NCBI GenBank assembly: GCA_965214095.1
Contig: OZ243938.1
Span: 1,760,001-1,824,000, forward strand
Origin: Candidatus Poribacteria bacterium
GTDB taxonomy: Bacteria; Poribacteria; WGA-4E; WGA-3G
Reading direction: 5' to 3'
DNA: 64,000 bases
Shown piece after piece: positions 17,782-52,699 of the stretch. A program made the translations under genes and the position numbers. Numbering within the stretch: position 1 is the first letter of the stretch; every line of letters starts with the position of its first letter. The notes beneath the pieces are model-generated. The model did not search any database. It was not told where the DNA came from and worked only from the letters and a program-made list of their open reading frames with translations.

Positions 17782-18003
17782 ATGATGAAAACAACTTTGG
17801 TTTCTACATTTATATTATTCATATTTTCACTTTTCACTTTTCTGCCGCAGGCTGCTTTCAACGATATTTCTAAGAAAAATATCAAAAAAGTAGTGATTTC
17901 TAAGAAAAATAGAGAAGCAAAAGTGTTTACAAACCATAACTTTCACCTGTTTGGAAATCCTAACAGGATGAAACTGTCCAACTATAGTTATAGTGAATTC
18001 TAA
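17782..18003 (+). pseudogene. signal-peptide-only remnant of a secreted protein gene
   Basis: RBS AAGGA + MMKTTLVSTFILFIFSLF; the rest is low complexity and its stop lies inside the repeat element starting at 17989. Confidence 0.5.
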
Positions 18004-18090
18004 ATATAAGTTGACACGTTCGTCCTATGGTAGTCGAGGTTTCCTAACCTCACTGATATAGAGTGTTCAAGTTCTTTCAAATTCTATTTA
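17989..18090 (-). repeat. TATAGT-shell/REP core A element (degenerate copy)
   Basis: Reverse complement of the 103-bp element at 28621; shares a TA with the adjacent element at 18089. Confidence 0.8.
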
Positions 18091-18225
18091 TGGTAAAACT
18101 TACAATTAATGAGACATATTGTCCCAATTACTTATTTATATAATGTCCGAGGCGCAATGAATTGCGCGACTACAAACGCGTTTTTCTAAATGTAAAGTGT
18201 ATTGTTAATTTTAAATTTCACTATA
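18089..18225. repeat. TATRGT...ACTATA shell with REP core B
   Basis: Termini TATGGT/ACTATA; hairpin GCGCAATGAATTGCGC + GACTAC at 18152-18173, identical core at 24389-24410. Confidence 0.75.
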
Positions 18226-18257
18226 TAATATTACAATATTGTTCAAAGGAGTTACCA

Positions 18258-18833
18258 ATGAGAAAAAAGCAAGATTTTATCATTGTAAAAGCCATATTTC
18301 TACTATTGATTAGTATTTCTATCACATTAATGGGTTGTGAGAGAATGCAACAACAGACAGGAATTATTCCAACCCCACCTGAAAAACAAGCGAACGCAAC
18401 GATTGGCTCATCAAATGAAAGTGGAATAACCGGAGAAGCAGTTTTCACGCAAAACGGCGACCAAATCACGCTCATGATTGATATTCAAGGCGCATCCTCC
18501 GGTCTTCACGCCGTTCATATACACGAACACGGTGATTGCAGTGCACCCGATGGCACATCCGCTGGAGGTCATTGGAATCCCACAGGTGTTGCGCACGGCA
18601 AATGGGGAGAAGGTGAGTTTCATCTTGGGGACATCGGGAATATTAACGTCGGAGATGATGGAATGGATAGCATTTCATTAACCACTGATCTCTGGGAAAT
18701 CGGCACAGGTTCAGACATTGATGTTGTCGGGAAAAGCATTATTGTCCATGCTGGTGCTGACGACTTCACCTCACAACCTTCTGGTGCTGCGGGCATGCGT
18801 ATCGGTTGCGGTGTAATTGAATTATCAGAATAA
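18258..18833 (+). CDS. sodC: Cu/Zn superoxide dismutase, lipoprotein
   Basis: HAVHIHEHGDC, SAGGHWNP, HLGDIGNI, SIIVHAGADD, RIGCGVI; lipobox LMGC; RBS AAGGAG before ATG 18258. Confidence 0.93.
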   Translation: MRKKQDFIIVKAIFLLLISISITLMGCERMQQQTGIIPTPPEKQANATIGSSNESGITGEAVFTQNGDQITLMIDIQGASSGLHAVHIHEHGDCSAPDGTSAGGHWNPTGVAHGKWGEGEFHLGDIGNINVGDDGMDSISLTTDLWEIGTGSDIDVVGKSIIVHAGADDFTSQPSGAAGMRIGCGVIELSE

Positions 18834-18915
18834 CTGCAATAGTCCTTACTTTACTTTTCAAGGATGTCATGCTGGATTCGGGGGCTTGGACAGACAGCAG
18901 GACACCTTAAATTAC

Positions 18916-19018
18916 TATGGTGAAGTATAAAATTATATTTACACTTTCATCCGACGGTAGGCGAGGTTTCCTATCCTCGCCGGTGTAGAGTGTTCAAGTA
19001 ATTTCAAAATCTACTATA
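18916..19018 (-). repeat. 103-bp TATAGT-shell/REP core A element
   Basis: GGTAGGCGAGGTTTCCTATCCTCGCC core; reverse complement of the 28621/34355/50237 copies. Confidence 0.88.
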
Positions 19019-19034
19019 ATATAAGGAGTTAAAA

Positions 19035-19435
19035 ATGTTTAGATTTAGTTATGTATGCTGAATCTTAACGATTCTGATCTGTTGTTTGCCTTCATATCAT
19101 GTGATGAAGCGAAGCAAATGATGGATCCAGTCATGCCGGTTGATGACATGAAGGAAACACCTGAACCGACACCGGCGGTAGAAACGCCTGATCCTCCACC
19201 AGTGGTAGAAACACCTGTAACTGGATTGCAGGAATCAATAATCGCAACTACAACTAACCCGTTGACAGAGGTGACATTGCATGAAAGCGTTGTTACAATC
19301 ACACTCAACAATAGAAGATTTGCAAGTTCTATTTTTGACATTAGAGATGCCGTATCGGTGTCTGGCATTGATGGTGTCACTATACCTTGGCACGAACCTG
19401 AACGAGAAAGTGATACATATGCAATCGATATTTAA
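19035..19435 (+). pseudogene. degraded lipoprotein carrying a truncated 'TEATL' repeat
   Basis: RBS AAGGAG + ATG 19035, TGA at 19059, frameshift into LLFAFISC lipobox, Pro-rich linker, then PLTEVTLHESVVTITL..RRFASSIFDIRD..PWHEP, truncated. Confidence 0.75.
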
Positions 19436-19944
19436 ATCTGTTAGGCTTTGCCGGCAGGAGCAAGTAAAAAAGTCCTGCAACATTGTCCTGTGTGGAGACG
19501 AAAAACTCACACTTCTATGATTTCATCATAGATCCCCTAACATCCTGCGGGGAGATGTAAAACCCCCGCACTCACAACATCAAGAGATAAAACGGATCTG
19601 AAGATGACATTTTCAGAATACCTATTGAAGTTGGTTTGCCATGACGCTTAGAAAAATGATCCTCATTACAATGTATACGAACAACGCCTTTTTGTTTGGA
19701 CTGAGTTATGATTTATAGGTTTGCGGCTGTAACAAAAACTTGCATACCTCGCCGTGGCAGAGGCGTTTTAAAATATCTGCCACAAACGGACGACCACACA
19801 TATTTGCTTATCACGTCCTCTTCCCTAATGATAAACAAATTTGTGTCATTGTCTGTCGTCTTGCAGGGAGACGCTAAACCCCGTTCTTATTGGATATAGG
19901 TGTTCGTATTATGAGAAAATCTAGAAGTTATAGGCTCTTTATAG

Positions 19945-20139
19945 TTTGTATCAACACGAGTAGTTGTGAACTCTCCTACCGTGAAAGTATAGAAGTAGAC
20001 ACCACTTGCGACTTCACCGAGTGCGTTCTTTCCATCCCAAAACGCAGCAGGTTAATGGGATTTATAGGTACCCACTTCCTGATGCCTAAATCCAAGTTTC
20101 GCACGAGTCGTCCATCGACATTATAGATATACTGACATT
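19945..20139 (-). pseudogene. degraded T9SS-A-like CTD fragment
   Basis: Reverse strand reads, with frameshifts and a stop, IYNVDGRLVRNLDLG/HQEVGTYKSH*PAAFWDGKNALGEVASGVYFYTFTVGEFTTTR. Confidence 0.8.
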
Positions 20140-20217
20140 GTGTCGATCCCCTATCATATAAACTATATCCGCAAGTAAGAGTAGGAGGTCGCCAAGCCAG
20201 TTGATATGCACGTCTTA

Positions 20218-20515
20218 TTAATCCGAGAATGTAATGTGAGTATATATATCTTGCAGTGGTAATTCACATTCAATGGAATTGAACTTCAGGACATCTTCTG
20301 GTGCTTCAAATGTCTTTCCTACCCACTGCGTTTCAACCAGACGATGGTGTTCAACACGTACCCTGTCTTGGGATACAAGGATATACTCACGCAAGGACAT
20401 AAGTTCCTGATAATGTGCGAACTTTTCGCCTCGGTCAAACGCTTCGGTTGATGGCGATAACACCTCTACGATAAGGATGGGATTCAAGAGGGTGTCAAAA
20501 ACATTATTATATTTT
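20218..20515 (-). pseudogene. C-terminal half of a Uma2-family (PD-(D/E)xK) endonuclease
   Basis: NVFDTLLNPILIVEVLSPSTEAFDRGEKFAHYQ..LREYILVSQ; N-terminal half absent. Confidence 0.8.
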
Positions 20516-20947
20516 AAAGTGATCTTGGAATAACACTAATCGGCAAATAACCGAAATCCTATTATCCTTCTTTCTTTGAGAGTTTTAACCAAATAATGAT
20601 ATTTCCAAACAGTCAAAAAGTTAAACCCTTTAGTGGCAGTGTTCTCAAACATAAGAACTTCGCCATATCATTAGTTAGTTAAATCCCTCCTTTTTTAGTG
20701 CAAGGGTTTAATATCTCACCGCAAGCCGTTTAGAGTTTTCTATTTAAACCCAAGTTACCACTACAATATACCATCTACATAGAAATGTCAGAAAAGCGAT
20801 GTTCACAGTGCTTATATGTCGCTCCGATTGGATCGGAAAAAAGATAACATACCGCTCCGCCAATCAACGGGACCGATGTCTTAATGACATTCCCCGGAGC
20901 GAAGATTAAACACGCTAATTGGATAGATTTTTTTGGAATTTCAATCA

Positions 20948-20990
20948 AATCACCCGCAGAATACGCGTATGGTATTTTGCGGGTGATTTG
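20948..20990. repeat. palindrome with core CAGAATACGCGTRTGGTATTYTG (second copy ~52590-52613)
   Basis: AAATCACCCGCAGAATAC-gcgtatg-GTATTTTGCGGGTGATTT. Confidence 0.65.
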
Positions 20991-21198
20991 GGTTAACCTA
21001 ACTGAGGAGTGTGCATAAATAATCCCGATTTAAATACGTGATAAAAGGAAGCCTGGACACACAATATGCCGTCAGAAAGTTCAAAGACGCACAATGAATT
21101 ATGCTACTTCAAACGCCATTTCTATAAACCAAGCGGTCTCTGAAGTCTGTTGCTACCTGTGTAAATGAGTCAAATATTTATGCACATCCCTCATCTGG

Positions 21199-21975: not shown

Positions 21976-22030
21976 TTGTATTCCCTTATTCATTTTAAAT
22001 TTTGACAGGGCATACTTGTATGTTACAACA

Positions 22031-23755: not shown

Positions 23756-23768
23756 ACCGGGTACTTCA

Positions 23769-24316: not shown

Positions 24317-24459
24317 TTATACCATTTCTAGTAGAGAATATCTCATTATAAGAGTATGAATTCTAACTTAAAATAGAGAATATAAGAGGCGCAATGAATT
24401 GCGCGACTACGAACGGTTCCTTTCTTAATGAGAAGTTATTTTTCAGAAATGGTATTATA
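24317..24459. repeat. ATACCATTTCT...AGAAATGGTAT shell with REP core B
   Basis: Inverted arms ATACCATTTCT..TCTCATTA / TAATGAGA..AGAAATGGTAT around the core at 24389-24410. Confidence 0.75.
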
Positions 24460-24499: not shown

Positions 24500-25345
24500 A
24501 TGAAACAGTATTTCCTTTTACTTCCAATCCTCGTTCTCTTCCTAAGTTGTTCACCACAACCGATAGAGATTCCTGATCCGAATTTAGCCGCAGCAATAAG
24601 AGATGCACTCGGTTTAGAACCAAGTGAACCGATCCTGCAAAAGGATCTGGATACGTTAACATCTCTGACAGCATCAGATGCTGGAATTACAGAATTAAAA
24701 GGTATTGAACAGGCAGGAAATTTAGTGAGTTTGCAATTGGACAGGAATCAGATTACAGACATCACCGCGCTAACAGAATTAGTCCAGCTCAAAGAACTCA
24801 ATCTCAGAATGAACCAAATCGCAGACGTGACACCGCTGCAAGGTTTAACACAACTGATAGAACTCTCAATATCAAATAGTCAAATAAGCGATATATCACC
24901 GCTAAAAAACCTGAAAAACCTGACGAAACTCTCAATATCAAATAGTCAAGTAAGCGATATATCACCACTCGCTGAATTAACACAACTCAAAGACCTATCA
25001 CTTTCATATAGTAGAATCAGCGATATTACTCCTCTTAAAAACTTAACGCAATTGAGGGTTTTACGGCTTGTTTCTAACCAAATTAGCGACATCACGCCAC
25101 TTGAAAATTTGACGTATCTCACCGATTTATGGCTTGTATCTAATCGGATTCGCGATATTTCACCTATCAGATTCATACCGCAACTTCGCAGTCTATTGGT
25201 TTCATTCAATCAAATCCAAGATATCAGCATAGTTGAGAAAATGACAAGTTTGAAGGATTTAGGGATTAAGGGTAATCCTATTCAAGACAAGACTCCAGTT
25301 TATCGGCTTCAAAAGAAAGTTCCAAATTTGAAGTTGAATATGTAA
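24500..25345 (+). CDS. internalin-like LRR lipoprotein
   Basis: MKQYFLLLPILVLFLSC lipobox, IPDPNLAAAIR cap, ~9 22-aa LRRs. Confidence 0.88.
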   Translation: MKQYFLLLPILVLFLSCSPQPIEIPDPNLAAAIRDALGLEPSEPILQKDLDTLTSLTASDAGITELKGIEQAGNLVSLQLDRNQITDITALTELVQLKELNLRMNQIADVTPLQGLTQLIELSISNSQISDISPLKNLKNLTKLSISNSQVSDISPLAELTQLKDLSLSYSRISDITPLKNLTQLRVLRLVSNQISDITPLENLTYLTDLWLVSNRIRDISPIRFIPQLRSLLVSFNQIQDISIVEKMTSLKDLGIKGNPIQDKTPVYRLQKKVPNLKLNM

Positions 25346-25358
25346 AAAGTTCTAATAC

Positions 25359-28019
25359 TCACATAGAAACTCCTAACAAACCGCGCGTCAACTGAAAATC
25401 TGTATTCCCTTTACCGTGTAACTTTGGGGTATAGTTCCGTGAAGCTACCTCAATAACCAACGATAATAATTCATCAACATCAACAGAAGTCAAATCCACA
25501 TCTTCTCCATACCGATTCTGTGTTGCCGAATCGGTCGTAACTTGAATTAGGGGGACCATCACATGTGATTGTAACGGAGCTCCAACGATATGTGCTAACG
25601 CAAGTTCAACACCCGTTGCTCCTAAACCTGTGAGAGTTTCCGTAGGTTGATCTGTGGGTGTCTCCATAATATGAAAACCTTTCTTTTCCACCTTCTGTCC
25701 ATAGGCTAACGATGGGGATGAAGACAAGGATTCTGTCAAGAATGTCGCGTTAGCAGGTACAACAACTGTTCCACCCGCATTGATGATTACTTCTGTCAGT
25801 TGCATCATTGATTGTGAAACAGATTTAGTCACCTCACCGACCGATGTTACTGTTACACAAAGGTGTTCTAATCCAGCATCAGCAATTGGTATAGAAGGTT
25901 TATCAGAAAGTTCATCTACGAACCAATTGTGCACCTTTTCAATTACTGCATCAATACCTCCGTCCATTTGCACACTTGCCCATCCATAACCTTCAGGCGA
26001 TATACCCAGTTTTTGAATTTCATGCCAAACGTGGTCGTTATGTGTCTTTTCACAGCCGTGCTCCAAAAGCAAACCGAGTGCAACCGTAGGATGCGTGAGA
26101 TGACCAATCATGGTGCGCGTGTGAATCTCCTCTGTGCGTCCACTTGAAACACCACATCCTTCTGTATGTGCAAGTGCTACAAATCGTGAGATACCTTGAT
26201 CACTTCCGATGCCTTGTTCATTGCATCTGTGTGCAATCATTTGCGCAATCTGACCTGAACAGAGGCTAGTCGGTAAGATGAGACCGAGTTGATCGCTGCG
26301 GTATCCATCTTGTGTTTGAAAAGCACGGAATGTGTAATCATCAGTAGATATATCAGTTGAGGAGATCGGTATTGGTTCACCTGATTTCATCTCGGATGCC
26401 TCAAGATAAGGTGTTAAATCCGTGGGGGCAGTCTGTTTCCAATCACGCCAGAGTGAAACTTGTGAATGTCCTGCTCTTTCTCCTACCGACAACTCACCCG
26501 ATGCAACACCGATAGTTTGATTAAGCATCTGTTCACCAAGTTGCTCCATCGGTGTGCCATCAAGATATGCTCCCGCGTTGACATCCATATCCTTCTCAAG
26601 CATCTCATACCGTGCAGTCGTCGTTACAATCTTTATTGTTGGGACAAAAGGGAAATTAGTAATGGAACCGTTGCCAGTAACAAAGAATATCATGTTGGAA
26701 CCGGATGCTACCTGTCCAGCAATGCTCTCCAAATCGTTGCCCGGACTGTCCATGAAGTAGTAACCTGATTTGTCCATCAATTCGCTGTAATCAATAATAT
26801 AATCAAGACAGACATCAGGATCTCGTTTCATCGCCGCACCGATTGATTTAATTGCAATGTTGTAAAGTCCTCTGAAATTGTTACCCCCGGATGGGTTCCC
26901 TTCTGCGGAATGTCCGTGCCATCCGACACGTTCCTTAAATCGTTCAACGGTATTGAGAAATTTGCGTGCTGTCGGCAGATCGCGTACGTTCTGAAGTAGA
27001 TATGCTTCTGCACCGATAAGTTCATCTGTTTCTGCAAGATTTGCGCATCCACCGTAACGGATTACCTCTTTCGCAACATAAGCAGCCAATGGGTTGCCGG
27101 ATACACCTGAAAATGCATCTGACCCTCCACACTGTAATGCTATTTTGAGGTTCTCCAAGGACTCTTCAGTCCGTGAGAATCGATTTACGGTATTTAACCA
27201 TCCGTTGATAATTTCAGATCCTTTTGCTATGTTCAAATCGAAACTACCTTGTAAGCGAAAGAAATTGTGAACGACATGGTCTAAATCGTACCCCTCGCGC
27301 ACCATATATTCTTTAAGCGTGTGGTTATTGACAACTTCAGTGCCGTAATCAATAAGCATGATTGCCCCAATATTTGGATGCACTGTGAAACCTGCCAATG
27401 TCCGAAGCAGCAAGTCAATGTTATTTGGTGTTTTTTCTTCTCCACCTTCAGTGTGTGTCACCGAAACAATACCATTTATGTTCGTATATTTATCTGCACT
27501 TGATGAACACTGGTCAGCGAGTTTCTTTGCAAAACCAGATGTGCGTGCTGTTGTCCCCATAACGACAATATAATTCCGTGTGCCAACACCACGACGAAAT
27601 GAACGTCTATAACCAAGAAATGAACGATCTTCTGAATGGTGTTCAACTTGTCTGCCCGGTCTCAATGCTTTTTCATCAAGGATAAAAGGTTTGATCGTGT
27701 CAATGAAGTTCGGAGTGTTCGGCAACTCAAAATCCAGATTCCTGATTGACAACGAATCTATCATCTTCTGATTGCATACATAATCGCCACGGGCAATTGA
27801 GCGGGAAGCGTATCCGAAAGGTAATCCCCAGGATAATAACGGCTCACCTTCTTCTATTGATTGGATGGCGAATCGGTGTCCTTCCAAGACGGCATGTGAT
27901 AATGAAAACTGCTCATCATCGTACTGAATCTGTGTTCCGACATCTAATTTCTGAGTAGCAATAGCAACGTTGTCATCTGGTGCAGGTAACCTCGCAACAC
28001 TTAGAAAATTATGTGTCAT
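25359..28019 (-). CDS. UxaA/GarD-family sugar-acid dehydratase with SAF domain and extra partial UxaA-like domain
   Basis: DNVAIA SAF start, GVGTRNYI, HTEGG, QCGGSDAFSG..NP, FMDSPGND, TGNG; second PTSLCS..HTEGCG..GCE module. Confidence 0.85.
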   Translation of the reverse strand: MTHNFLSVARLPAPDDNVAIATQKLDVGTQIQYDDEQFSLSHAVLEGHRFAIQSIEEGEPLLSWGLPFGYASRSIARGDYVCNQKMIDSLSIRNLDFELPNTPNFIDTIKPFILDEKALRPGRQVEHHSEDRSFLGYRRSFRRGVGTRNYIVVMGTTARTSGFAKKLADQCSSSADKYTNINGIVSVTHTEGGEEKTPNNIDLLLRTLAGFTVHPNIGAIMLIDYGTEVVNNHTLKEYMVREGYDLDHVVHNFFRLQGSFDLNIAKGSEIINGWLNTVNRFSRTEESLENLKIALQCGGSDAFSGVSGNPLAAYVAKEVIRYGGCANLAETDELIGAEAYLLQNVRDLPTARKFLNTVERFKERVGWHGHSAEGNPSGGNNFRGLYNIAIKSIGAAMKRDPDVCLDYIIDYSELMDKSGYYFMDSPGNDLESIAGQVASGSNMIFFVTGNGSITNFPFVPTIKIVTTTARYEMLEKDMDVNAGAYLDGTPMEQLGEQMLNQTIGVASGELSVGERAGHSQVSLWRDWKQTAPTDLTPYLEASEMKSGEPIPISSTDISTDDYTFRAFQTQDGYRSDQLGLILPTSLCSGQIAQMIAHRCNEQGIGSDQGISRFVALAHTEGCGVSSGRTEEIHTRTMIGHLTHPTVALGLLLEHGCEKTHNDHVWHEIQKLGISPEGYGWASVQMDGGIDAVIEKVHNWFVDELSDKPSIPIADAGLEHLCVTVTSVGEVTKSVSQSMMQLTEVIINAGGTVVVPANATFLTESLSSSPSLAYGQKVEKKGFHIMETPTDQPTETLTGLGATGVELALAHIVGAPLQSHVMVPLIQVTTDSATQNRYGEDVDLTSVDVDELLSLVIEVASRNYTPKLHGKGNTDFQLTRGLLGVSM

Positions 28020-28035
28020 AGTACCTCCTTGCCTG

Positions 28036-28605
28036 CTATTTACGATAGATACTTACCTCAATAGCATCTTTTTTAACCCACGGCAGATTGATGTCAAACC
28101 AATGTGTTTCAGATTCAAAGTTTGTGCGGACGTGTTCAAGATAATCTGCCATAGCATCTGCTCCGATACCAACGTTGTCAGCTAATACAGTTGCCGGGTT
28201 TGTCAATTGTGGTTCAATTGCTTTAAAACATGGATAGTAATTATCAAAGTTATTATCAAGAAGCAGAAAATCTACAGGTTCATTTATATTTTTCAGTGCC
28301 TCTTGTGCATCACCAATACGAGAATCAACGAGCTCAGAAACGCCAGCACTTTCAAAATTCGCTCGGGCTTGTTTTGCGCGGTTCGTATCTATTTCAAGTG
28401 TTATCAAACGTCCAGAACCTATTTCTTTCAAAACGCGTAACATCCAGAGACCAGAATATCCTATTGCAGTGCCACATTCAACGATGAGGGAAGGTTTTGC
28501 CTTCTCCACCCATCCAGCAATAAATTTTGCTTTTTCAGGACCCAACATCGGAATCCTTTCTTCTCTACACTGTTCTTCAACCTTTTGTAATACTTGTTCA
28601 AACAT
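28036..28605 (-). CDS. class I SAM-dependent O-methyltransferase
   Basis: IVECGTAIGYSGLWM, IGDA, LADNV; RBS AAGGAGG before ATG 28605 (the longer called ORF runs through a repeat element). Confidence 0.88.
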   Translation of the reverse strand: MFEQVLQKVEEQCREERIPMLGPEKAKFIAGWVEKAKPSLIVECGTAIGYSGLWMLRVLKEIGSGRLITLEIDTNRAKQARANFESAGVSELVDSRIGDAQEALKNINEPVDFLLLDNNFDNYYPCFKAIEPQLTNPATVLADNVGIGADAMADYLEHVRTNFESETHWFDINLPWVKKDAIEVSIYRK

Positions 28606-28620
28606 ATAGTCCTCCTTATA

Positions 28621-28723
28621 TATAGTAGATTTTGAAATTACTTGAACACTCTGCATCGGCGAGGTTAGGAAACCTCGCCTACCGTGGGGCGAAAGTGTCA
28701 ACTTATATTTATAATTCACTATA
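28621..28723 (+). repeat. 103-bp TATAGT-shell/REP core A element (reference copy)
   Basis: TATAGTAGATTTTGAAATTACTTGAACACT...GGCGAGGTTAGGAAACCTCGCC-TAC...AGTGTCAACTTATATTTATAATTCACTATA. Confidence 0.92.
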
Positions 28724-34354: not shown

Positions 34355-34457
34355 TATAGTAGATTTTGAAATTACTTGAACACTCTGCATCGGCGAGGTT
34401 AGGAAACCTCGCCTACCGTGGGTCGAAAGTGTCAACTTATATTTATAATTCACTATA
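34355..34457 (+). repeat. 103-bp TATAGT-shell/REP core A element
   Basis: One visible mismatch to the 28621 copy. Confidence 0.92.
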
Positions 34458-35936: not shown

Positions 35937-36425
35937 TCAAGAGCTCCCATAACGTTCACATATAACTTCAATGAGATTCGTTGTGGATTTGCCCGGTACG
36001 TTGAGTCCAACGACAACTTTGCCTCCATTTTTCTCAACGATATCTCTTTCAATGAGTTGTTCCAACTTATAGTCGCCACCTTTGACATGGATATTCGGTT
36101 TGAGTTCTGCAAGTAATTCAACCGGTGTTAATTCTGAGAAGATGACGACAAAATCAACGCATCCTAAGCCTGCAAGCATTTCTGCGCGTTCAACATCAGG
36201 AATTAGAGGACGGTTTTCACCTTTTAGTTCTCTGACAGAACTATCACTGTTGACTGCAACTACAAGCACGTCCCCTTGTTGACGTGCGGCTTGTAGATAG
36301 CGTAAATGTCCTAAATGCAGAACATCAAAGCAACCGTTCGTGGTGACGACAACTTTACCGTCTGCTCTGAGTTGTTGGAGTATTGCTGCAAGTTCGTTGC
36401 GTTGATATATCTTGTTTGGTGTCAT
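35937..36425 (-). CDS. rfaE2: D-glycero-beta-D-manno-heptose 1-phosphate adenylyltransferase
   Basis: TNGCFDVLHLGH, NSDSSVRELKG..RP, VKGGDY, STT. Confidence 0.92.
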   Translation of the reverse strand: MTPNKIYQRNELAAILQQLRADGKVVVTTNGCFDVLHLGHLRYLQAARQQGDVLVVAVNSDSSVRELKGENRPLIPDVERAEMLAGLGCVDFVVIFSELTPVELLAELKPNIHVKGGDYKLEQLIERDIVEKNGGKVVVGLNVPGKSTTNLIEVICERYGSS

Positions 36426-36552
36426 AATTTTAAAAGTTTATCACGCTTTGTATCGTTTGGCAACTTGGTTTTTGTTTATACATTATTGCACAATCTCACT
36501 GCATTTGCTATAATAATTGGTAATGCAAGAGACAATAATCACATTGAGAAAA

Positions 36553-36669
36553 TAATACCATTTCTATAAATGTTTATCCCATTAACATTTGTTAAGAATG
36601 TCTTGAAGGACTGCACAAACTGGCAGTTTATGCTACAAGAATGCGGCGTTTTCTATTAGAAATGGTATA
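36553..36669. repeat. ATACCATTTCT...AGAAATGGTAT shell with REP core G
   Basis: Inverted arms; hairpin GCACAAACTGGCAGTTTATGC + TAC at 36613-36636; abuts the RBS of the next gene. Confidence 0.75.
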
Positions 36670-36680
36670 AGGAGAAATAG

Positions 36681-39468: not shown

Positions 39469-40828
39469 TTTTTGCTACTATCCTCCACCGTTCTTGATCT
39501 TTTGCTATAATTGATCGCACTTTTTCTGCAAGTTCTGTCAACGTCTGCCGTGGTGTCTGCTTTTGTGTGACAGCAGCAAAGATTGCATCGTTTAGTAAAT
39601 CTGCTGCTTCTGACCAATATGGATTTTGATAACGTGGTGGCAATTCAGGTGCGAGTTCTATGAATAACTCCCCAATCGGTTGTCCACCTAAATATTCAAG
39701 CGGTTGTTTTAAGGCTTCGGCATCCCATGCTGCTTTGAGTGGAGGAATAATCAAGGTCGTTTCATATCGGTTTATCAAACTTGATCTATCAAAGTAGGTG
39801 AATTTCAGTAGTTCCCATGCCAGATCGGGATTCTCACACTCTTTTGTAATGCCTATCATTGTGCCGCCGCGTGTCGTCGTGCGTCTGCCACCGATTTCCC
39901 AAGCAGGCATACTTATTGCTTTCCATTTGCCAGACATCTGCGGCACTTGACTTTGCAGAAGTCCTACATACCAATCTGGGGCAAGTATAGACAGGATTTT
40001 GCCGTCTTGCATTGCAGCATAGTTGCTGGGATCCCCGTGCCATGTGCCGTAGACGGGTGTTGCGATGTTATGTTCATTAAATAGGGATGTGAAGAATTCC
40101 AGTGTTTGAATTGCGATTTCACTGTCAATGATGACATCGCCTTTAGCATCAAAAAAGCCACCGCCTCTTTGTAGCAAAAGGTTCATATAGTCGCTTTCAG
40201 TTTTGTTGTCAAGGACGATGGCATATTGGTCAATTTCTCCATCTCCATCAAGATCGCGCGTTGCTTTTTTTGCCGCAATGATGAAGTCATCCCAAGTTTC
40301 AATTTCAGTCATCTCAACATCGGCAGCTTTAAACAGGTCATCTCTGTATAGGAGGACAACTGGATGCAAGTCGTGTGGGATTCCGAATATTTTATCTCCA
40401 TAAGACCAAGGCGTGAAGCGGCTGATGACTAACTGGTCTAACCATCCTTCGCCTTCTAAACGGGGACGTAAATCAACGAAACCGACTTCATCAATATCTC
40501 CCTTTAAGAAACGTCCGATTGAATTGATTTCGACTTCAACTATATCGGGTGCCCCGAAGTCTGAGAGTAATGCGGTTAGGAGTTTGTCGTGCATCGTTCC
40601 ACCGAAATTGATAAGTTGTACATTTACATCAGGATGTGAGGTATTATAGATTGGCAACCGTGCTTGATATTCTTCGTAATGTGTCGGCGCAAATACCCAA
40701 AATTCTAATTCTTTTTCCGTTTCATCTACTGGTGCGAATATGAAAAGGCATGAGATTAGGAAAAGAATTAACATGACCATCGGACCTTTGCCGAGTGGAA
40801 AATTTTCTGGATCATAAGGGAAACGCAT
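39458..40828 (-). CDS. carbohydrate ABC transporter substrate-binding protein
   Basis: APDIV, YGDKIFGIP, LLYRDDLF, TWDDF, GG.MIGI. Confidence 0.88.
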   Translation of the reverse strand: MRFPYDPENFPLGKGPMVMLILFLISCLFIFAPVDETEKELEFWVFAPTHYEEYQARLPIYNTSHPDVNVQLINFGGTMHDKLLTALLSDFGAPDIVEVEINSIGRFLKGDIDEVGFVDLRPRLEGEGWLDQLVISRFTPWSYGDKIFGIPHDLHPVVLLYRDDLFKAADVEMTEIETWDDFIIAAKKATRDLDGDGEIDQYAIVLDNKTESDYMNLLLQRGGGFFDAKGDVIIDSEIAIQTLEFFTSLFNEHNIATPVYGTWHGDPSNYAAMQDGKILSILAPDWYVGLLQSQVPQMSGKWKAISMPAWEIGGRRTTTRGGTMIGITKECENPDLAWELLKFTYFDRSSLINRYETTLIIPPLKAAWDAEALKQPLEYLGGQPIGELFIELAPELPPRYQNPYWSEAADLLNDAIFAAVTQKQTPRQTLTELAEKVRSIIAKDQERWRIVAKNEN

Positions 40829-40963
40829 AAAGTGCCTTTTTTGAAGTAATTACACATTTTGGATATGTAGGAGGGAACTCCGATTCCTGATCACTACTGA
40901 GTTAAATCGCGATTCGGGATCGCTCCTACAGTGACATGAATAATTGTTTTATACTTCACTATA
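40828..40963. repeat. shell element with two facing REP cores (C and D), REPIN-like
   Basis: GTAGGAGGGAACTCCGATTCC at 40867 and ATCGCGATTCGGGATCGCTCCTAC at 40906-40929; right end ACTATA; left end degenerate. Confidence 0.7.
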
Positions 40964-41055
40964 ATTGCGCTGTTAAATTCGTGCCATCTGCGATTCTGAT
41001 TATCGGATTTAGAAACCGCGCCAACAATCGCTACCTGCTTCTTATCATTTTTGAC

Positions 41056-42429: not shown

Positions 42430-42436
42430 CATCGCG

Positions 42437-43084
42437 CTAAATATGTTCTTCCTTTAGACGATGTGCTTTCCTATTTAGCGTAGGATCTTTAGAAAACTTT
42501 AATGTTGCTTGTACCAGTCCTTCTACATGCGATACCATATCTTTCTCTACTTGTACTATGCGACTCATAAGGTATGGTTGATCACTTGCCTGTATCGCCT
42601 GTCTCATGATTGAGAGTAGATATAGATAAATCGTGTCTGACTCACTTCCCTCAATTTCGATTGCTATTTCAAACGCTTCATCTAAAGATATTCTTCCACT
42701 TTCAACTTGAGATTCGTGTGCATCCAAGGCATCTGTGATATCTTGTATGGAAATAGGTGGAAATGGCACTATAGGTGATGTTGTTTCATCTGTATCTGCT
42801 TCTGAAATGGTTGTGTCTTTCCCAAAAGTTTCAATACAGATTGCGCGTCCAAAGTCTACAAGTATGTAGTGTTGCCATTCTTCGGTGCTCATCCTTTCCC
42901 AAAAGCGTGCGATACGTTCATCATAGTCACCCAAATGCAGCGCGAAGGAGGCGTATAGTTTTGCTTGTCGCAGTTCAAGGTCTTGGCAAATATCAAAAAG
43001 TTCTTCTAATGTCAATTTTTCTCCTTGTGTTCGTGTAATAAGGGAATCTGGTGTCTGTTCACTAATTCCACTCAATATCATCAA
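42437..43084 (-). CDS. hypothetical ferritin/rubrerythrin-like protein
   Basis: ELRQAKLY..FWERMSTEEWQH (ExxH), AIEIE; start uncertain. Confidence 0.55.
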   Translation of the reverse strand: MMILSGISEQTPDSLITRTQGEKLTLEELFDICQDLELRQAKLYASFALHLGDYDERIARFWERMSTEEWQHYILVDFGRAICIETFGKDTTISEADTDETTSPIVPFPPISIQDITDALDAHESQVESGRISLDEAFEIAIEIEGSESDTIYLYLLSIMRQAIQASDQPYLMSRIVQVEKDMVSHVEGLVQATLKFSKDPTLNRKAHRLKEEHI

Positions 43085-44150
43085 GAGTTGTCGCGGTTGC
43101 CACCTGTTCTAAAAGAGCATCAAGACGGGTGCGGCTTCGCATCCTTGAGATTTTATTGACAACCGTATCGGGAACTTCACCGATGCGTAGGTCAAGTAGT
43201 TTCAAGAGAAACTCCCGTTTGGCTTGTATCTTTCCACGTTCCTCACCGCGTTTCTCACCGCGTTTCTCACCGCGTTTCTCACTTCGTTGTATCAGAGCTT
43301 CTGCACCTGTCATAATGAAATTTTCTACCTCCTTATCATGAGTTTGAGATTGTATAAGTTGTCTCAATTGTGTTTGTTCTGCTTCGGGTCGTCTAAAAAA
43401 TACCAAAAAATATAGATAAAGTATCTCGTGGTTGTGTAGTTCAGGATGTTCAGCTGCTAAGGTCTCCAAATGTGTAAGTGCTGCTGACAATGCCTCTTGC
43501 ATTGATGTTTCATCTGCGGTTTCTTGTTGCAGCACTGTCATTAACCATCCGAAAGGATGATCAACATCAGTAAATTTCTCTATATCTTCATCCTTCACAC
43601 CAAGAAATAAAGTCTCAAAAGTTGGGACAAAGGGTGTCATCATCGATGGAATATCCATTGATGCGGAAAGAGATATCGGTATCTTCCATCGTTGTTGACC
43701 GGTATAAAAGACAATTGGGAGGATGGGACGTAAACGCCACGCTCTTCTTGGAACTTTAGAATTCTTTTGTTCCTCCAGCTGCCCGTGCCATATCTGGCAC
43801 ATATAAGACAACAACCGAAATCCCATCAGGTGGTCAACGGTTGATTGATGTTCTATCAAAATATAAATGGTTAGGTCGTCACATAAAGTTGTGTCTCGAA
43901 ATGGCACAGTAAACACCATATCAGACACCAAATCTCGCAACGTATTATCAACAATACTCCTGTTTTCTATTCTTGCTTGAGTGAAGTCCAGATGTTCGGC
44001 AAGTTCACTGGCAAGGATTAGGACTAACCCATGTAAATTTTCCGATTTTTTGAATAACCACCTTGCACTTTTGTCTGCGAAATGTCCAATTTTTGGATTA
44101 AATAAAGTGCGTATTTCTTCTAAATCTGCTATTTTGTTATCCGTTTGCAC
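43062..44150 (-). CDS. Rpn/YhgA-like PD-(D/E)xK nuclease (putative transposase family)
   Basis: SDMVF..YILIEHQS..MGFRLL.Y, PILPIVFYTG..W; GTG start after AGGAG; EKRG repeats near the C-terminus. Confidence 0.88.
   Translation of the reverse strand: MQTDNKIADLEEIRTLFNPKIGHFADKSARWLFKKSENLHGLVLILASELAEHLDFTQARIENRSIVDNTLRDLVSDMVFTVPFRDTTLCDDLTIYILIEHQSTVDHLMGFRLLSYMCQIWHGQLEEQKNSKVPRRAWRLRPILPIVFYTGQQRWKIPISLSASMDIPSMMTPFVPTFETLFLGVKDEDIEKFTDVDHPFGWLMTVLQQETADETSMQEALSAALTHLETLAAEHPELHNHEILYLYFLVFFRRPEAEQTQLRQLIQSQTHDKEVENFIMTGAEALIQRSEKRGEKRGEKRGEERGKIQAKREFLLKLLDLRIGEVPDTVVNKISRMRSRTRLDALLEQVATATTLDDIEWN
43242..43282. repeat. 12-bp tandem repeat (CTCACCGCGTTT)x3 encoding EKRG units
   Basis: Directly visible. 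Confidence 0.9.
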
Positions 44151-44230
44151 TATGTCTCCTGGACCATTACTATCATTAGTATAGACTAACATTAATCTGA
44201 CAAAATGTCAATAACGTAAGATTTTTAATC

Positions 44231-44349
44231 TATAGTGGAATTTACAATTAATAGGACACGCCTCAGAGGGCGAGGAAACCTCGCCCCTACGGGACTTGTG
44301 GTGCTTGCAAGTGCATTGAAATGGCTTCTTAATTCTAAACTTTACTATA
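44231..44349 (+). repeat. TATAGT...ACTATA shell with REP core E
   Basis: 119 bp; core GGGCGAGGAAACCTCGCCCCTAC; left arm resembles that of 18089. Confidence 0.8.
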
Positions 44350-48498: not shown

Positions 48499-49143
48499 AT
48501 GAAATCAGAAACAAAAAGGGATCGTGGTATTATCGTCGGCATAACCGGTGGTATTGCGTGCGGCAAAACAACGGTATCAGAATTGCTTGCTGGCAAAGGG
48601 GCAATACCGATTAACGCTGACGAGATTGGTCATCAACTCCTCAAATCTGACAGTCCGGTTATTGATGAACTGGTTGACACATTTGGCACTGAGATACTGG
48701 ATCAATCAGGAGATGTGAGTAGAAAGAAATTGGGAGAAATCGTTTTTAACGATAAGTCCGCGCGTGAACGACTCAACGTCCTGCTACATCCACTGATAAT
48801 TCAACGTTCCCGATCCCGTGCTCAGCAGCTTGTGAATGAGGATCCATCCTGTGTAGTGTTACTTGATGCCCCACTGCTCATAGAGGCAGGTGCTTATGAT
48901 TCTGTTGATCTGATTGTCGTTGTAACCGCTTCTAACGAAACACAATTGCAACGGATATTAGAACGTAGTCAACAACAGAACCGTCCACTTACTAAAGCCG
49001 ATGCTCAAGCCCGTATTGACTCACAAATGCCTTTATCTGAAAAGGTGAAGTATGCTGATGTCGTCATTGAAAATGAAGGATCTATTGAAGGACTACAGAA
49101 GCAGGTAGAGTCATTATGGGATAAACTTCATAAAGACTTATGA
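48499..49143 (+). CDS. coaE: dephospho-CoA kinase
   Basis: GITGGIACGKTTV, LHPLI, DAPLLIE, RIDSQMP..ADVVIEN. Confidence 0.95.
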   Translation: MKSETKRDRGIIVGITGGIACGKTTVSELLAGKGAIPINADEIGHQLLKSDSPVIDELVDTFGTEILDQSGDVSRKKLGEIVFNDKSARERLNVLLHPLIIQRSRSRAQQLVNEDPSCVVLLDAPLLIEAGAYDSVDLIVVVTASNETQLQRILERSQQQNRPLTKADAQARIDSQMPLSEKVKYADVVIENEGSIEGLQKQVESLWDKLHKDL

Positions 49144-50223
49144 GGCGTTCCAAAGCACATTTATGGCATTTGCCTTGATAACACAGTAGACTTCCTTACC
49201 ATTACTCAGTTGGAGTTGGTCCCTTGCTTCATACGTAATTTTAACGGAGAGTCTATACCCCTCAACAAGAATCGTTACAATTATTTGGTCATCAACGCGA
49301 TCAATTGTCCCCCGTAGAATGTTTCTCGCACTAATTGGTAAATTGGGTTCAAGAGAAATGATAATGTCCTCTGCGCGGATTGCTATAGGCACAGGATTTC
49401 CTATCTCTGTATCTATGTAAGGAATTACGAGCATTTGATTCCCAATTTCTAATTCCGTTACGCCTCGCTGTTTATCTGAGTTTGCTACTGGGAGTGAGAA
49501 TATATTTTCCACACCTGTCATATTTGCTATAGGTAACGCTGATGGTGCTGTTAGTAACTGATGCGGTTCTCCATTAGCGATGATCTTTCCATCTGACAGG
49601 AGAAATGCCTCGTCAGCAAGTGCCATTGCTTCAGATATGGCATGCGTGACATAGATGATTGGAATTTCATACTCGTTTTTGATGTGATGTAGATATGGAA
49701 TAATCCTGTTTTTCAGTCCACCATCCAAGGATGCAAGCGGTTCATCCATCAGAAGGAGGTGCGGTTCCATTGCCAGTGCACGTGCAATCGCAATTCGTTG
49801 ACGTTGTCCACCCGACAGTTGCTTCGGATATCGTTGAAGTAAATCGGCAATTTCAAGTGTATTAAGAATTTGAGAAAGACTATCTGGTTTTTTACGCTTC
49901 GTCTTAGATTGACCATAACGGATATTCTTTTCAACTGTAAGATGGGGAAATAGGTGTCCTTCTTGAAATATATATCCAATTCGGCGTTTATCGGGTGGCA
50001 CACTGATTTTCAAATCGGTGTCATATAGTTTATTGTTACCAAAAACAATCTGCCCTTTATCAGGTGAGAGTGTTCCACTGATACAGCTGAGCAGTGTTGT
50101 TTTTCCACTGCCAGATGCCCCTAAAAAGGCAGTTACCTTTTGATGCAGTTCACAATCAACATCTAATGTGAATTCTCCGAGACTTTTCTTTATGTTGAGT
50201 AGAAAATTATACTTTCCAGACAT
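49138..50223 (-). CDS. modC: molybdate ABC transporter ATPase with TOBE domain
   Basis: GASGSGKTT, LSGGQRQR, LMDEP, ISARNIL. Confidence 0.92.
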   Translation of the reverse strand: MSGKYNFLLNIKKSLGEFTLDVDCELHQKVTAFLGASGSGKTTLLSCISGTLSPDKGQIVFGNNKLYDTDLKISVPPDKRRIGYIFQEGHLFPHLTVEKNIRYGQSKTKRKKPDSLSQILNTLEIADLLQRYPKQLSGGQRQRIAIARALAMEPHLLLMDEPLASLDGGLKNRIIPYLHHIKNEYEIPIIYVTHAISEAMALADEAFLLSDGKIIANGEPHQLLTAPSALPIANMTGVENIFSLPVANSDKQRGVTELEIGNQMLVIPYIDTEIGNPVPIAIRAEDIIISLEPNLPISARNILRGTIDRVDDQIIVTILVEGYRLSVKITYEARDQLQLSNGKEVYCVIKANAINVLWNAS

Positions 50224-50236
50224 ATTCGCCAAACAT

Positions 50237-50339
50237 TATAGTTGATTTTGAAATTACTTGAACACTCTGCATCGGCGAGGTTAGGAAACCTCGCCTACCA
50301 TGGGAAGAAAGTGTCAACTTATATTTATAATTCACTATA
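50237..50339 (+). repeat. 103-bp TATAGT-shell/REP core A element
   Basis: Near-identical to the 28621 copy. Confidence 0.92.
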
Positions 50340-50367
50340 TAGTTGAAAAAGGTAGGTTTCCAACAAT

Positions 50368-50670
50368 CTATTCAAAGCCGCCGCCATCGAATCCTCCACC
50401 ACCGTCAAAACCACCAGCATCACCGCCGCCATCAAATCCTCCATCACTACCACCAGAATCTGCATCCCCAGAAGTATCATTATCTAACATACTGCCAAGA
50501 ATTAGACCTGTGAAAAGGGCATCTTCCGTATCACTATTGGGGTCAACGGTATCAGCACCATCATTTTGCCTTCTCTTTCTATTCTGAGAGCCTTTATTTA
50601 TTGATTTAACTATAGCAACTAAAATCACGATAAATGCTATTGAGACTAAGAAAAACACAAGAGTTCCCAT
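50368..50670 (-). CDS. small single-TM protein with GGFDGGG-repeat tail
   Basis: RBS AAGGAG, N-terminal TM, basic patch, Gly/Asp/Phe tail. Confidence 0.78.
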   Translation of the reverse strand: MGTLVFFLVSIAFIVILVAIVKSINKGSQNRKRRQNDGADTVDPNSDTEDALFTGLILGSMLDNDTSGDADSGGSDGGFDGGGDAGGFDGGGGFDGGGFE

Positions 50671-50719
50671 TTTTTTCTCCTTTTAAATCTGTTGTTATCA
50701 TTAAGGACAGTAAAGTTTT

Positions 50720-50815
50720 TATAGTAAATTATTGAATTAATTCTACACATTGATCAGGCGAGGTTAGGAAACCTCGCCTACCGTTGATAGAAAGTGTAGA
50801 TATAATTTCACCATA
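50720..50815 (+). repeat. 96-bp diverged TATAGT-shell/REP core A element
   Basis: TATAGT...GGCGAGGTTAGGAAACCTCGCCTACCGT...AAAGTGT...CACCATA. Confidence 0.85.
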
Positions 50816-50912
50816 ATCGTCGAAACCTACCCTACAATGTGTGAAAGGTTTCCGATATTGAGAATTACCAAAAAATAAATTAATTTTCATCAAAGTACAC
50901 CGAACTGTTGTT

Positions 50913-51578
50913 CTACCGCGGGTTAATTCGTTCTGTCATCCATATAGCAACGAACGCCAGTATTGTTGAAATCAGTACTAATCGGTAAGCAGTGATATCA
51001 TCACCCAGCTGCACCGATTGAAAAATTGCCAGTGCAATGGTCTGCGTTTTCCCGGGGATATTCCCGACTACCATCATTGTTGCACCGAACTCCCCAAGAC
51101 TCTTCGAGAATCCAAGAATACCTCCACTTATAATTCCACGATACGCCATCGGTACAGTTATCGTCCAAAAGACTTTGATAGGTGAAGCACCGAGTGTTCG
51201 CGCAGCATCTTCAAGTTCAGATGGCACAGATGCAATTCCTGTCATTATACCTTGAACTAACAACGGGAATGATATTACTGACACAGCAATTACAACAGCG
51301 AATTGTGTAAAAACAATCTCTATATTGAAAAAGTTAGATAATATACTGCCAACAGGTCCATTTTTACCCAATAATATTAGGAGTAGATACCCACTGACTA
51401 CAGGTGGCAGAACCAGTGGTAACATCACTAATGTATTGAGAAATATCTTCCCTGGAAATTCTCGTTTTGCGAGCAGCCATCCTACGAACAGTCCCGGTGG
51501 AAACATTACAACGAGGCTAAGTAAGGCAACTTTTATAGATAGGACAAGAGCAGAAACTTCAGTCGGTGTAATCCTCAT
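50913..51578 (-). CDS. modB: molybdate ABC transporter permease
   Basis: LPLVLPPVVSGY, EDAARTLGAS, SLGEFGAT..GNIPGKTQT. Confidence 0.95.
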   Translation of the reverse strand: MRITPTEVSALVLSIKVALLSLVVMFPPGLFVGWLLAKREFPGKIFLNTLVMLPLVLPPVVSGYLLLILLGKNGPVGSILSNFFNIEIVFTQFAVVIAVSVISFPLLVQGIMTGIASVPSELEDAARTLGASPIKVFWTITVPMAYRGIISGGILGFSKSLGEFGATMMVVGNIPGKTQTIALAIFQSVQLGDDITAYRLVLISTILAFVAIWMTERINPR

Positions 51579-51598
51579 TGTGGTGAATCAGTTCTACG

Positions 51599-52402
51599 TT
51601 ATTTTGCGGATGTAGGAGATAAACATGTAAATCCGTGTTTTTCAAATATCTCTGTAGCAATGGGTTCTTTTAAGAATGTGAGAAATGTTTCTGCCCAATT
51701 TTTATTGTTGCTGTTCTTTAGAATAACTGCGGGATAGACTATTCTTGAATGCGTTTCGTCGGGAAATTTGTATAGAACTCTGACCTTGTTTGTAACTTTT
51801 GTATCGGTTTCATATACAATTGCAATGTCTACATTTCCTGATGTCAGATATGCAAGTGTTGCACGCACATTTGTGCCAAAGATTAGTTTCTGTTTTACCT
51901 TCTCCCACAATCCAAAGTGTTCTAATGCCTCTTTTGCGTAGCTACCAGCAGGAACTATTTCAGGATGTCCCATCGCAATTCGCTTGATAGGTGTATCCTG
52001 TATATTTTTTAGATTCTCCACAGTAATCTCAGTGTCCTTTTGAGATACAGCGACTAAACGGTTTGTCAACACATCCGTTCTGCTGCCATCTTCAAGTAGA
52101 CCGAGTGAATTTAAGGAATCAACCTGAATGGGACTTGCTGAGATGAATACATCTGCTGATGCCCCTTTTTCTATTTGACGTTGAAGCGTTGTAGATGCAG
52201 CCAAGTTATAATGCACACGAATGTCTTGGTGTTCGGTAAATTGTGCTCCAATTTCAGTGAGCGCATCGGATAGACTTATAGCAGCAAAGACATATAACTC
52301 ACGTTGTTTCTGTTTGTCTGATTGGCATCCCGATATACAGCAGAAGATGAGAAGAATTATCAATAGAGAACACGGAAGAGCGTTACGTTGCACTATCTTC
52401 AT
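51599..52402 (-). CDS. modA: molybdate ABC transporter substrate-binding lipoprotein
   Basis: FAAISL, QIEKGA.ADVFISA, VPAG.YA, IVYETD. Confidence 0.93.
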   Translation of the reverse strand: MKIVQRNALPCSLLIILLIFCCISGCQSDKQKQRELYVFAAISLSDALTEIGAQFTEHQDIRVHYNLAASTTLQRQIEKGASADVFISASPIQVDSLNSLGLLEDGSRTDVLTNRLVAVSQKDTEITVENLKNIQDTPIKRIAMGHPEIVPAGSYAKEALEHFGLWEKVKQKLIFGTNVRATLAYLTSGNVDIAIVYETDTKVTNKVRVLYKFPDETHSRIVYPAVILKNSNNKNWAETFLTFLKEPIATEIFEKHGFTCLSPTSAK

Positions 52403-52456
52403 CTCTGAGACCTCATTTCATATAGTCTACCAGAAAATATAACACCTGTCAAGCCT

Positions 52457-52699
52457 AAGGTTATTTAGTTTTGAGTATTTCCAAAATAGAAATTTACTGA
52501 AAGTTAATCCTCAAGACGGTAAGTGCGGTTTCCTAACCGCACTGGAACCCACAAGAATACTGACTATAAAAGGTTTTAGCACAAATTCGCCAGAATACGC
52601 GTGTGGTATTCTGCATTGGTTAGGAAACCGCACCTACCGTCTTGAAACATTTAGCATTTGTGAAAAAAACACAAGATAAACCTAAAACTAAATATCCCT
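52457..52699. repeat. REPIN-like composite: TATTTAGTTTT shell, two inverted REP core F copies and a nested CAGAATAC palindrome
   Basis: TCAAGACGGTAAGTGCGGTTTCCTAACC ... GGTTAGGAAACCGCACCTACCGTCTTGA; outer arms TATTTAGTTTT / AAAACTAAATA. Confidence 0.78.

Follow-up and report, generated by a model that had tools for sequence, protein, structure and literature searches.

RUP of Streptococcus pneumoniae is a non-coding element of about 100 bp with terminal inverted repeats (TIRs) of the IS630 family of insertion sequences (ISs); it inserts at TA, is present in about 100 copies and is presumed to be mobilised in trans (PMC2229807). The Correia (NEMIS) elements of Neisseria have TA termini, duplicate their target and exist in 107- and 155-bp forms that differ by a module binding integration host factor (IHF), which, it has been proposed, may aid transposition (PMC2229807). 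In the systems known as REPtrons, repetitive extragenic palindromes (REPs), which are GC-rich hairpins tagged with GTAG, occur as singlets and as inverted doublets (REPINs) together with REP-associated tyrosine transposases (RAYTs) (PMC3116915, PMC2817692). Section 7 of PMC3733652 (2013) reports GTAG-15 dimers located in long palindromes of Anabaena variabilis, with the consensus TATAGGA...TCCTATA, and similar cases in Thermomicrobium roseum and Halothiobacillus neapolitanus; no such palindrome was seen empty, and that section offers no explanation and no transposase. The elements described here have a GTAG hairpin (the core) inside inverted arms (the shell), and were found in a 64,000-bp stretch of the chromosome of a Candidatus Poribacteria bacterium (assembly G000, contig C1, positions 1760001-1824000), referred to below as the window.

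These elements resemble RUP in size, in their IS630-type TIRs, in insertion at TA, in a copy number of about 100 and in presumed mobilisation in trans. However, nearly every family here, across six TIR classes, has a central REP or REPIN, whereas the account of RUP in PMC2229807 reports no internal DNA motif. A further difference is that G000 is without an intact transposase. The central REP module has a parallel in the internal IHF module of the Correia elements (the likeness is by description), but it is a GTAG REP hairpin and not an IHF site, and parent ISs can be identified here. The features common with REPtrons are the GTAG hairpins, the compensatory stem variants and, in related genomes, RAYT genes with the same kind of hairpin. 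Unlike in REPtrons, most REP loci here are beside or inside IS630-type TIRs, the inserting unit duplicates TA, and there is no RAYT above the family cut-off in G000. The two-layer design, with REPs inside a TATAG-ended palindrome, is also that of the Anabaena repeats. In comparison with that account, the shells here are linked to the ends of IS630, the duplication of TA is demonstrated, and a single genome has many combinations of shell and core. Elhai et al. (Genome Research, 2008) reportedly described very small repeats nested in larger cyanobacterial repeats. The mosaic, combinatorial arrangement of REP types with other short motifs is similar to that of the bacterial interspersed mosaic elements (BIMEs) of Escherichia coli, which PMC2817692 mentions. 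In BIMEs, fixed linker motifs connect REPs of alternating orientation. The elements here differ from BIMEs in carrying IS-type TIRs and in duplicating TA. We know of no BIMEs with TIRs that match an IS or with a duplicated TA. [quoted passage not shown] A search of one literature collection returned nothing relevant on MITEs or REPs in Poribacteria and no paper describing REPs inside IS630 MITEs. New here are the assignment of the shells to IS630 ends, the combination of six TIR classes with about seven classes of REP, the fact that the REP is conserved within the MITE, and a genome in which most REP loci adjoin MITE ends of the DDE type or lie inside them.

The elements are, in our judgment, quite probably IS630-type MITEs with a REP or REPIN at the centre that are moved whole, each family having been built once and then amplified. 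The 5.25-Mb assembly has four contigs and is 94.5% complete; C1 accounts for 5.2 Mb (41% G+C). In C1, 14-mers occurring at least 8 times cover 3.3% of the sequence and form 990 intervals of at least 40 bp. Of these, 960 are no longer than 400 bp and group into 232 clusters, with 183, 118, 78, 48, 45 and 33 members in the largest. The elements are 47-264 bp long, non-coding and multi-copy, with up to about 104 copies per family. A preliminary description of the window, made from its letters, had listed 12 intergenic two-layer elements as a hybrid system with exchangeable cores and shells. All 12 exist where it placed them, give or take a few bases, most are members of multi-copy families, all are intergenic, and the view that their two layers derive from two different transposition systems is borne out.

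Shell and core move together as a unit, with duplication of TA, in the shell classes S1 (TATAGT) and S4 (CTAGTG...). The 35-nt flanks of 327 TA-bounded elements were joined and an exact, gapless paralogue was sought. Joins through a single TA gave paralogous empty sites in 12 cases (9 S1, 3 S4), as compared to 0, 2, 0 and 0 for joins through nothing, T, TAT and TATA, respectively. Empty alleles were also observed for two elements in the window. In run X2, from a different study, a contig about 6% divergent spans window positions 24830-28618 and resumes directly at 28720. This contig lacks exactly 101 bp, corresponding to the 103-bp element at 28621 minus one TA. In the related metagenome-assembled genome L098, the site of the element at 36553-36670 reads CTCCTTATTTTCTC and the element is absent; for this alignment, on the hisF side, L097, L099, L100 and L104 are not syntenic and L101 and L102 align only in part, so the comparison is with L098 alone. 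The contigs of runs X5 and X6 break at repeats and give only repeat-to-repeat joints, and those of X1 end at repeats, making all three uninformative for empty sites. The 103-bp family, F1 (window 28621, 34355 and 50237, with diverged copies at 17989 and 18916), has 107 full-length members among 173 BLAST matches, and one member is inserted at the TA of CCCAT-TA-ACATTT within an S2 element. Four F1 copies are 100% identical over 103-104 bp in the genome-wide BLAST. With the empty sites, near-identical copies such as these show recent movement, as previously read from the near-identical 103-bp repeats.

Identical base triplets flank the two TIRs on the outside in 80 of the 103 elements of class S2 (TTA 44, TAA 31, TGA 3, TCA 1), and the full IS copies L020, L022 and L028 are flanked by TTA. 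This class may duplicate a 3-bp TNA, or it may duplicate TA and have a terminal base that is asymmetric. The orientation of the cores relative to the replichores is unbiased (79 versus 67 for type I in shells, 31 versus 30 for core B), which is better accounted for by cut and paste of double strands than by HUH transposition of a single strand.

The shells of classes S1, S2 and S6 are, as judged by alignment, the TIRs of IS630-family ISs, in agreement with the earlier assignment of TA-bounded shells to this type. The S1 arms are about 33-38 nt long and abut the core directly. The single IS630-like gene in G000 (81.8 bits, cut-off 100, with two stops) is bounded by the TATAGT-type TIRs TATAGTAAACTTTAGATTTTATGATACA and TATAGTGACATTTAGAATTATTGATACA. 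Its catalytic open reading frame (ORF) is frameshifted into segments of 88 and 133 aa, and the relative in G013 has one ORF of 203 aa. The relatives in G013, G001 (40 matches), G007 and G002 are ISs of 904-912 bp with the same kind of TIR, so full-length IS630 copies with matching TIRs are present in related genomes. An alignment of six S1 MITE arms with ten IS ends has a single gap and nine invariant columns; in the 44231 element, the first 21 nt of the right arm match the left TIR of the G013 copy exactly. The S2 arms (ATACCATTTCT) align with the ends of the IS630 copies L028, L020 and L022. Class S6 (ATGAAGATTAATTTATTAA) matches L023 and L024, and its left and right MITE arms follow the unlike left and right ends of the IS. 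The number of core motifs inside the 11 full-length IS630 copies is zero, and as a result the cores are not leftovers of the IS interior.

The shells had been described as inverted arms. Only a TIR of about 28-38 nt, and not the whole arm, is common between elements, and arms of different families share nothing beyond it. Single-linkage clustering fused 491 arms into one cluster and was of little use for subfamilies. A de novo search for inverted repeats around the cores placed 133 of 786 loci above the 99th percentile of random controls, this small number being due to arms that are poor complements of each other, and it was replaced by motif-based and profile-based censuses.

The cores are, from their sequences, classical REP/REPIN hairpins carrying GTAG, in keeping with the high-copy, GC-rich hairpins of 20-40 nt expected of REPs. 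A GC-rich perfect hairpin follows GTAG at 1190 of 30,289 sites, whereas four control tetranucleotides with matching base composition have one at 191-511 of 33,621-63,664 sites; the association of GTAG with a hairpin is not due to chance. Altogether 999 hairpins were typed, in 585 loci. The type I core consists of GGTAG, a stem, TTTCCTAA and the complementary stem, and its stem variants are GTTCG (251), GCGAG (118), GTGCG (78) and ATGCG (71). The other classes are B (112), IV (110), II (88), III (46 to 77, depending on the method) and V (23), together with VI. Inverted doublets occur for types I, II, IV and VI, and the unit seen inserting is the TIR-bounded composite.

The RAYT model exceeds its cut-off in 18 of 31 genomes from this order, a set that contains G000. 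The RAYT genes of the relatives are flanked by naked GTAG hairpins without shells, the classical arrangement, and these hairpins are cousins of core I (L044, L045), core II (L036, L037) and core VI (L043), which upholds the earlier reading of the GTAG cores as REPs. The expectation of RAYT genes flanked by these cores therefore holds in relatives for cousins of I, II and VI, and not in G000, where no RAYT was found at an E value of 1e-8 or better. The best score there for a REP-associated tyrosine transposase is 28.8 bits (cut-off 80), from an ORF of 108 aa that is N-terminally truncated and starts at the HUH motif; a type II REPIN in an S4 shell follows it. IS605 was considered as the enzyme for the cores and rejected, the four copies with TnpA and TnpB (the other four Y1 matches) having end hairpins unlike the cores.

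Two observations concern REPs outside the shells. Opposite window positions ~36400-36440, L098 has a segment of about 130 bp with two direct GTAGGTCGGGGTCTCTGTGCCCCGAC hairpins that is not in the window, a difference in the presence of naked REPs between close relatives. An IS of 1.5-1.7 kb (13 copies among the long repeats) sits within type I REP hairpins. A full copy of the hairpin stands to either side of it, adjoined by the IS end CATAGGCGTCAATTTA; examples outside the window are at C1 2355691-2357364, 944409-945938 and 2496070-2497599. Short derivatives with the ends of this IS form part of the largest repeat cluster.

The genome-wide pattern consists of six shell classes combined with about seven core classes, and the cores are not freely exchangeable. 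TIR pairs were found by their end motifs alone. The 189 pairs of class S1 contain one type I hairpin (79), two type I hairpins (52), core B (19), other GTAG-containing sequence (22) or nothing (6), and the 103 pairs of S2 contain III (31), B (26), V (5), I (5), other GTAG-containing sequence (25) or nothing (5). Class S3 (38 pairs) has two type I hairpins in 12, two type II in 8, one type I in 5 and IV in 5. Class S4 (43 pairs) has a type II REPIN in 17, a single type II in 8, V in 4 and VI in 1-2, with about 10 empty shells of 41-51 bp; it is the only shell class also found empty. The 19 pairs of S5 hold IV (12), II (3) and B (1), and 15 of the 18 pairs of S6 hold type I. Core B had been noted in two shell classes in the window, at 18089 (TATAGT type) and 24317 (S2 type), and this is correct; genome-wide, its 112 hairpins are distributed over S2 (53), S1 (24) and naked positions (21). 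A shell motif is located on both sides of 317 of the 585 typed core loci, on one side of 181 and on neither side of 87. Of these loci, 498 have a shell motif within 110 bp; the same holds for 74 of 800 random positions, the other 726 having no such motif. Shells and cores are thus not in fixed pairs, and the REPs are mostly inside shells.

The combinations form discrete families, each with one fixed core orientation. Element sizes are sharply peaked (103, 138, 112, 132, 192 and 115 bp), stem variants are partitioned by shell, and sizes and core contents are fixed for each TIR class. In the filled S4 copies that were read, the REPIN has one orientation relative to two unlike arms. Only 12 of the 585 core loci have a core-less paralogue, and 10 of these reflect the 47-bp empty S4 shell versus its REPIN-filled form. 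In one case, a 26-bp type I REP is present or absent in an IS4-derived MITE, with CCGG on both sides. In view of the discrete families, the fixed orientation and the rarity of core-less paralogues, each combination is read as having been founded once, after which the composite was amplified. Of the hybrid system proposed earlier, the variable pairing of shells and cores stands and the free exchange of cores does not.

An IS630-type DDE transposase, supplied in trans, would cut and paste the whole unit, comprising two transposase-binding TIRs of about 30 nt around one REP hairpin or REPIN doublet. The unit would insert at TA and duplicate it, with S2 duplicating TA or a 3-bp TNA. The cores probably come from the REP/RAYT systems of the clade, each captured once at the origin of a MITE family and then amplified with it, as a result of which most REP loci of the genome would now be beside or inside MITE ends. 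The core may in turn aid the MITE, either by a bend or cruciform between ends that stand too near each other or by giving a REP-binding protein its site. With one frameshifted IS630 copy and one truncated RAYT-like gene, both enzyme types appear defunct in G000, and the population has thus recently expanded and is now probably stranded.

Several explanations other than whole-unit IS630 transposition have been considered. In a true hybrid, independently mobile REP or REPIN units would be put into or removed from the centres of MITE shells by a RAYT, for example at the single-stranded tip of the hairpin, and shells and cores would recombine continually. The S4 shell would fit this well, as it is found empty or with a REPIN, a single REP, core V or core VI, has its junctions exactly at GTAG/CTAC, and in one case encloses the type II REPIN next to the truncated RAYT-like gene; the REP present or absent in the IS4-derived MITE, the naked REP doublet of L098 with none at the window site, and the occurrence of one core class in 2-4 shell classes point the same way. 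However, the core-less paralogues nearly all belong to the single S4/type II relationship, for which one event suffices given that the filled copies that were read all have the same core orientation against two different arms. No empty S1, S2, S3, S5 or S6 shells were seen, the same shell with another core is mostly a different family sharing only the TIR, and the genome has no RAYT at the threshold given above. We regard the hybrid as unlikely. Whole elements might instead be transposed by a tyrosine transposase of the HUH kind, whether a RAYT or a relative linked to TIRs (TIRYT) that takes the shells as its long TIRs. Such movement has a precedent in the tyrosine-transposase genes with long TIRs that form repeat families, as described in PMC3733652, and would account for the strong conservation of GTAG and the loop inside the MITE. 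It is very improbable given the TA duplication, the match of the TIRs to IS630 ends, the lack of replichore strand bias, and the shell-less, naked REPs that flank the RAYT genes of relatives. Hardly any weight is given to shells that are not transposon ends at all, whether inverted duplications grown around REPs by fold-back or template switching or immobile regulatory palindromes of the host. All of the elements are intergenic, and in 3 of 5 cases the whole element folds as a long imperfect hairpin with the REP at its tip, as such an origin would suggest; but empty sites with TA duplication disfavour it, the S6 and S1 MITE arms correspond to unlike left and right IS ends, and some families have arms that pair badly (z of -0.3 at 18089).

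The whole-unit IS630 explanation also has evidence against it. Class S4 has only a short match, to L025, and the parent ISs of S3 (GGGTTATTTAGTTTT) and S5 (TGAGGGGTGTGCATAAA) were not found. The S1 TIR profile matches IS ends weakly, with E values of 0.0018 to 0.96 (the matches listed are L054, L056, L053 and L023). No intact IS630 transposase was found in the 94.5%-complete genome despite the four identical F1 copies. IS630 elements are known to duplicate TA, and a 3-bp duplication in S2 would be unusual in this respect; S5 seems to duplicate 4 bp (NTAN, 12 of 19), and S3 has no direct repeat at the registers tested. The single capture per family is deduced from fixed orientation. Finally, the core is better conserved than the TIRs, which is unexpected for a mere passenger.

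Within the genus, 16 of 18 other genomes carry family F1 with the same core, as do 5 of 12 genomes from three other families of the order. The comparison covers 45 copies from 11 relatives' genomes (G002, G005-G008, G011, G012, G014, G017, G026). Measured against the G000 copy, identity averages 0.96 for the 26-nt core (GGTAG, stem and loop all at least 0.9), 0.86-0.91 for the outer 12 nt of the TIRs, 0.72-0.77 for the rest of the TIRs and 0.66-0.73 for the linkers, in a set recruited by whole-element BLAST, which favours a conserved GC-rich seed. In the 103 G000 copies ascertained by the TIR profile alone, the core is again the best kept (0.986 versus 0.935-0.96). The diverged F1 representatives number 6 after de-replication, too few for a profile. 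A pure passenger is not expected to outlast the transposase-binding ends, and a purely structural hairpin would have no need for GTAG and the loop, so the REP may help the MITE. We put forward only tentatively the idea that REP hairpins are a functional module needed, and repeatedly captured, by IS630-type MITEs and not passive cargo. The core may be a protein-recognised site, or a cruciform hinge that lets TIRs only ~30-70 bp apart synapse. If the core is functional, this would amount to cross-talk between the HUH (RAYT/REP) and DDE (IS630) systems, and would explain the REPs inside palindromes reported in cyanobacteria.

The copy numbers given for the individual elements of the window are genome-wide, at coverage of at least 85% and identity of at least 80%, with the element itself included. 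The element at 17989-18091 (plus strand, 92 copies) is a diverged F1 member with S1 TIRs of the TATAGT type and one type I REP (GGTAGTCGAGGTTTCCTAACCTCAC). The TA at 18089-18090 is common with the next element, a junction that had been pointed out and is real. This next element, at 18089-18225 (minus strand, 25 copies), is a 137-bp MITE whose S1 shell encloses core B, which reads GTAGTCGCGCAATTCATTGCGCC on the minus strand. Another F1-type MITE with S1 TIRs, at 18916-19018 (plus strand, 98 copies), has the type I REP GGTAGGCGAGGTTTCCTATCCTCGCC. The F1 MITEs at 28621-28723 (103 bp with both TAs, 103 copies; missing from the X2 contig), 34355-34457 (99% identical to 28621, 104 copies) and 50237-50339 (103 copies) are all on the minus strand. 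A 97-bp S1-shell MITE at 50720-50816 (minus strand, 27 copies) is from a family that is sister to F1 and shares its type I core. Two S2-shell MITEs are located on the minus strand: at 24317-24457 (TACCATTTCT...AGAAATGGTA, core B, TTA on both sides, 4 copies) and at 36553-36670 (core III, GTAGCATAAACTGCCAGTTTGTGC on the minus strand, TAA flanks, 46 copies; absent in L098).

The element at 40828-40995 is of low copy number (2 full copies, 39 partial matches) and contains a type VI REPIN (GTAGGAGGGAACTCCGATTCC ... GGGATCGCTCCTAC); its right S1 TIR is good and its left end is a degenerate TATAGT end. At 44231-44349 (minus strand, 13 copies) is a 119-bp S1-shell MITE with core V (GTAGGGGCGAGGTTTCCTCGCCC on the minus strand). 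The S3-shell element at 52457 (AGGTTATTTAGTTTT...AAAACTAAATATCCCT, families F11 and F28) runs to about 52700 (52457-52700; 7 copies, counted for 52436-52699) and contains two inverted, partly degenerate type I REPs with a long spacer between them. Additional to the 12 listed is a 191-bp S5-class element at 21003-21193 (TGAGGAGTGTGCAT...ATGCACATCCCTCA, family F8), whose core is degenerate. In single-strand folds, z is -3.8, -4.2 and -6.3 (the last for 50720) for the three elements that form a long imperfect hairpin tipped by the REP, and -2.4 and -0.3 for the remaining two.

As noted before, no cognate enzyme is encoded in the window, and none is intact in the genome. The IS at ~57654-58654 was considered for this role and rejected, its ends GAACTCATA... 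being unrelated to the shells. This IS is 1000 bp long (57654-58654) with 9 genome copies and ends GAACTCATAGCGAGTAA and GAACTCATATTGAGTAA, and the longest open frame listed covers only part of it; from our own reading of the ORF and ends, it is presumably IS5-like. A Transposase_31 (YhgA/Rpn-like) gene, one of three in the genome, is positioned directly beside the 44231 MITE (43062-44192, minus strand), and no link between it and the repeats was found. The small contigs C3 and C4, considered as hidden carriers, have no transposase. In C3 (5.5 kb), the first ~1.4 kb is repeated at the end, as in a small circular replicon read past its start, and C2 (32 kb) has 64% G+C, compared to 41% for the chromosome, and may be foreign.

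The window also contains other repeats and genes. Positions 1-15884 and 19055-19435 are occupied by very long genes built of repeats of ~300-320 bp (families D1-D20), presumably for repeat-domain surface proteins. Two adjacent tRNA genes at 62111-62270 are the sole Rfam matches in the window at the gathering threshold. A separate repeat family, with CAGGATTTTCAGGATT-like units followed by GGTTCAGACAA, is found at 59524-59567 and in 78 intervals genome-wide, and is sometimes fused to S3 ends (clusters 2, 24 and 27). Outside the window, clusters 26 and 31 contain five and four copies of a ~60-nt motif, GGAGCGGGCATT.CTCCC ... GGGTCTCCTGCCCGA.GATTAGATGA, which resembles a structured leader or small RNA.

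About 400 elements and 1000 hairpins can now be labelled in the annotation of Poribacteria genomes. A design left unexplained in 2013 gains a concrete identity, as the palindrome arms here correspond, by alignment, to IS630 transposon ends. The conserved GTAG, stem and loop raise the question of whether the central REP promotes the transposition of very short Tc1/IS630-type elements. In this clade, the REPs are consistent with multiplication inside DDE-mobilised MITEs and not via their own tyrosine transposase, and the reading of REP population structure in such genomes would change accordingly.

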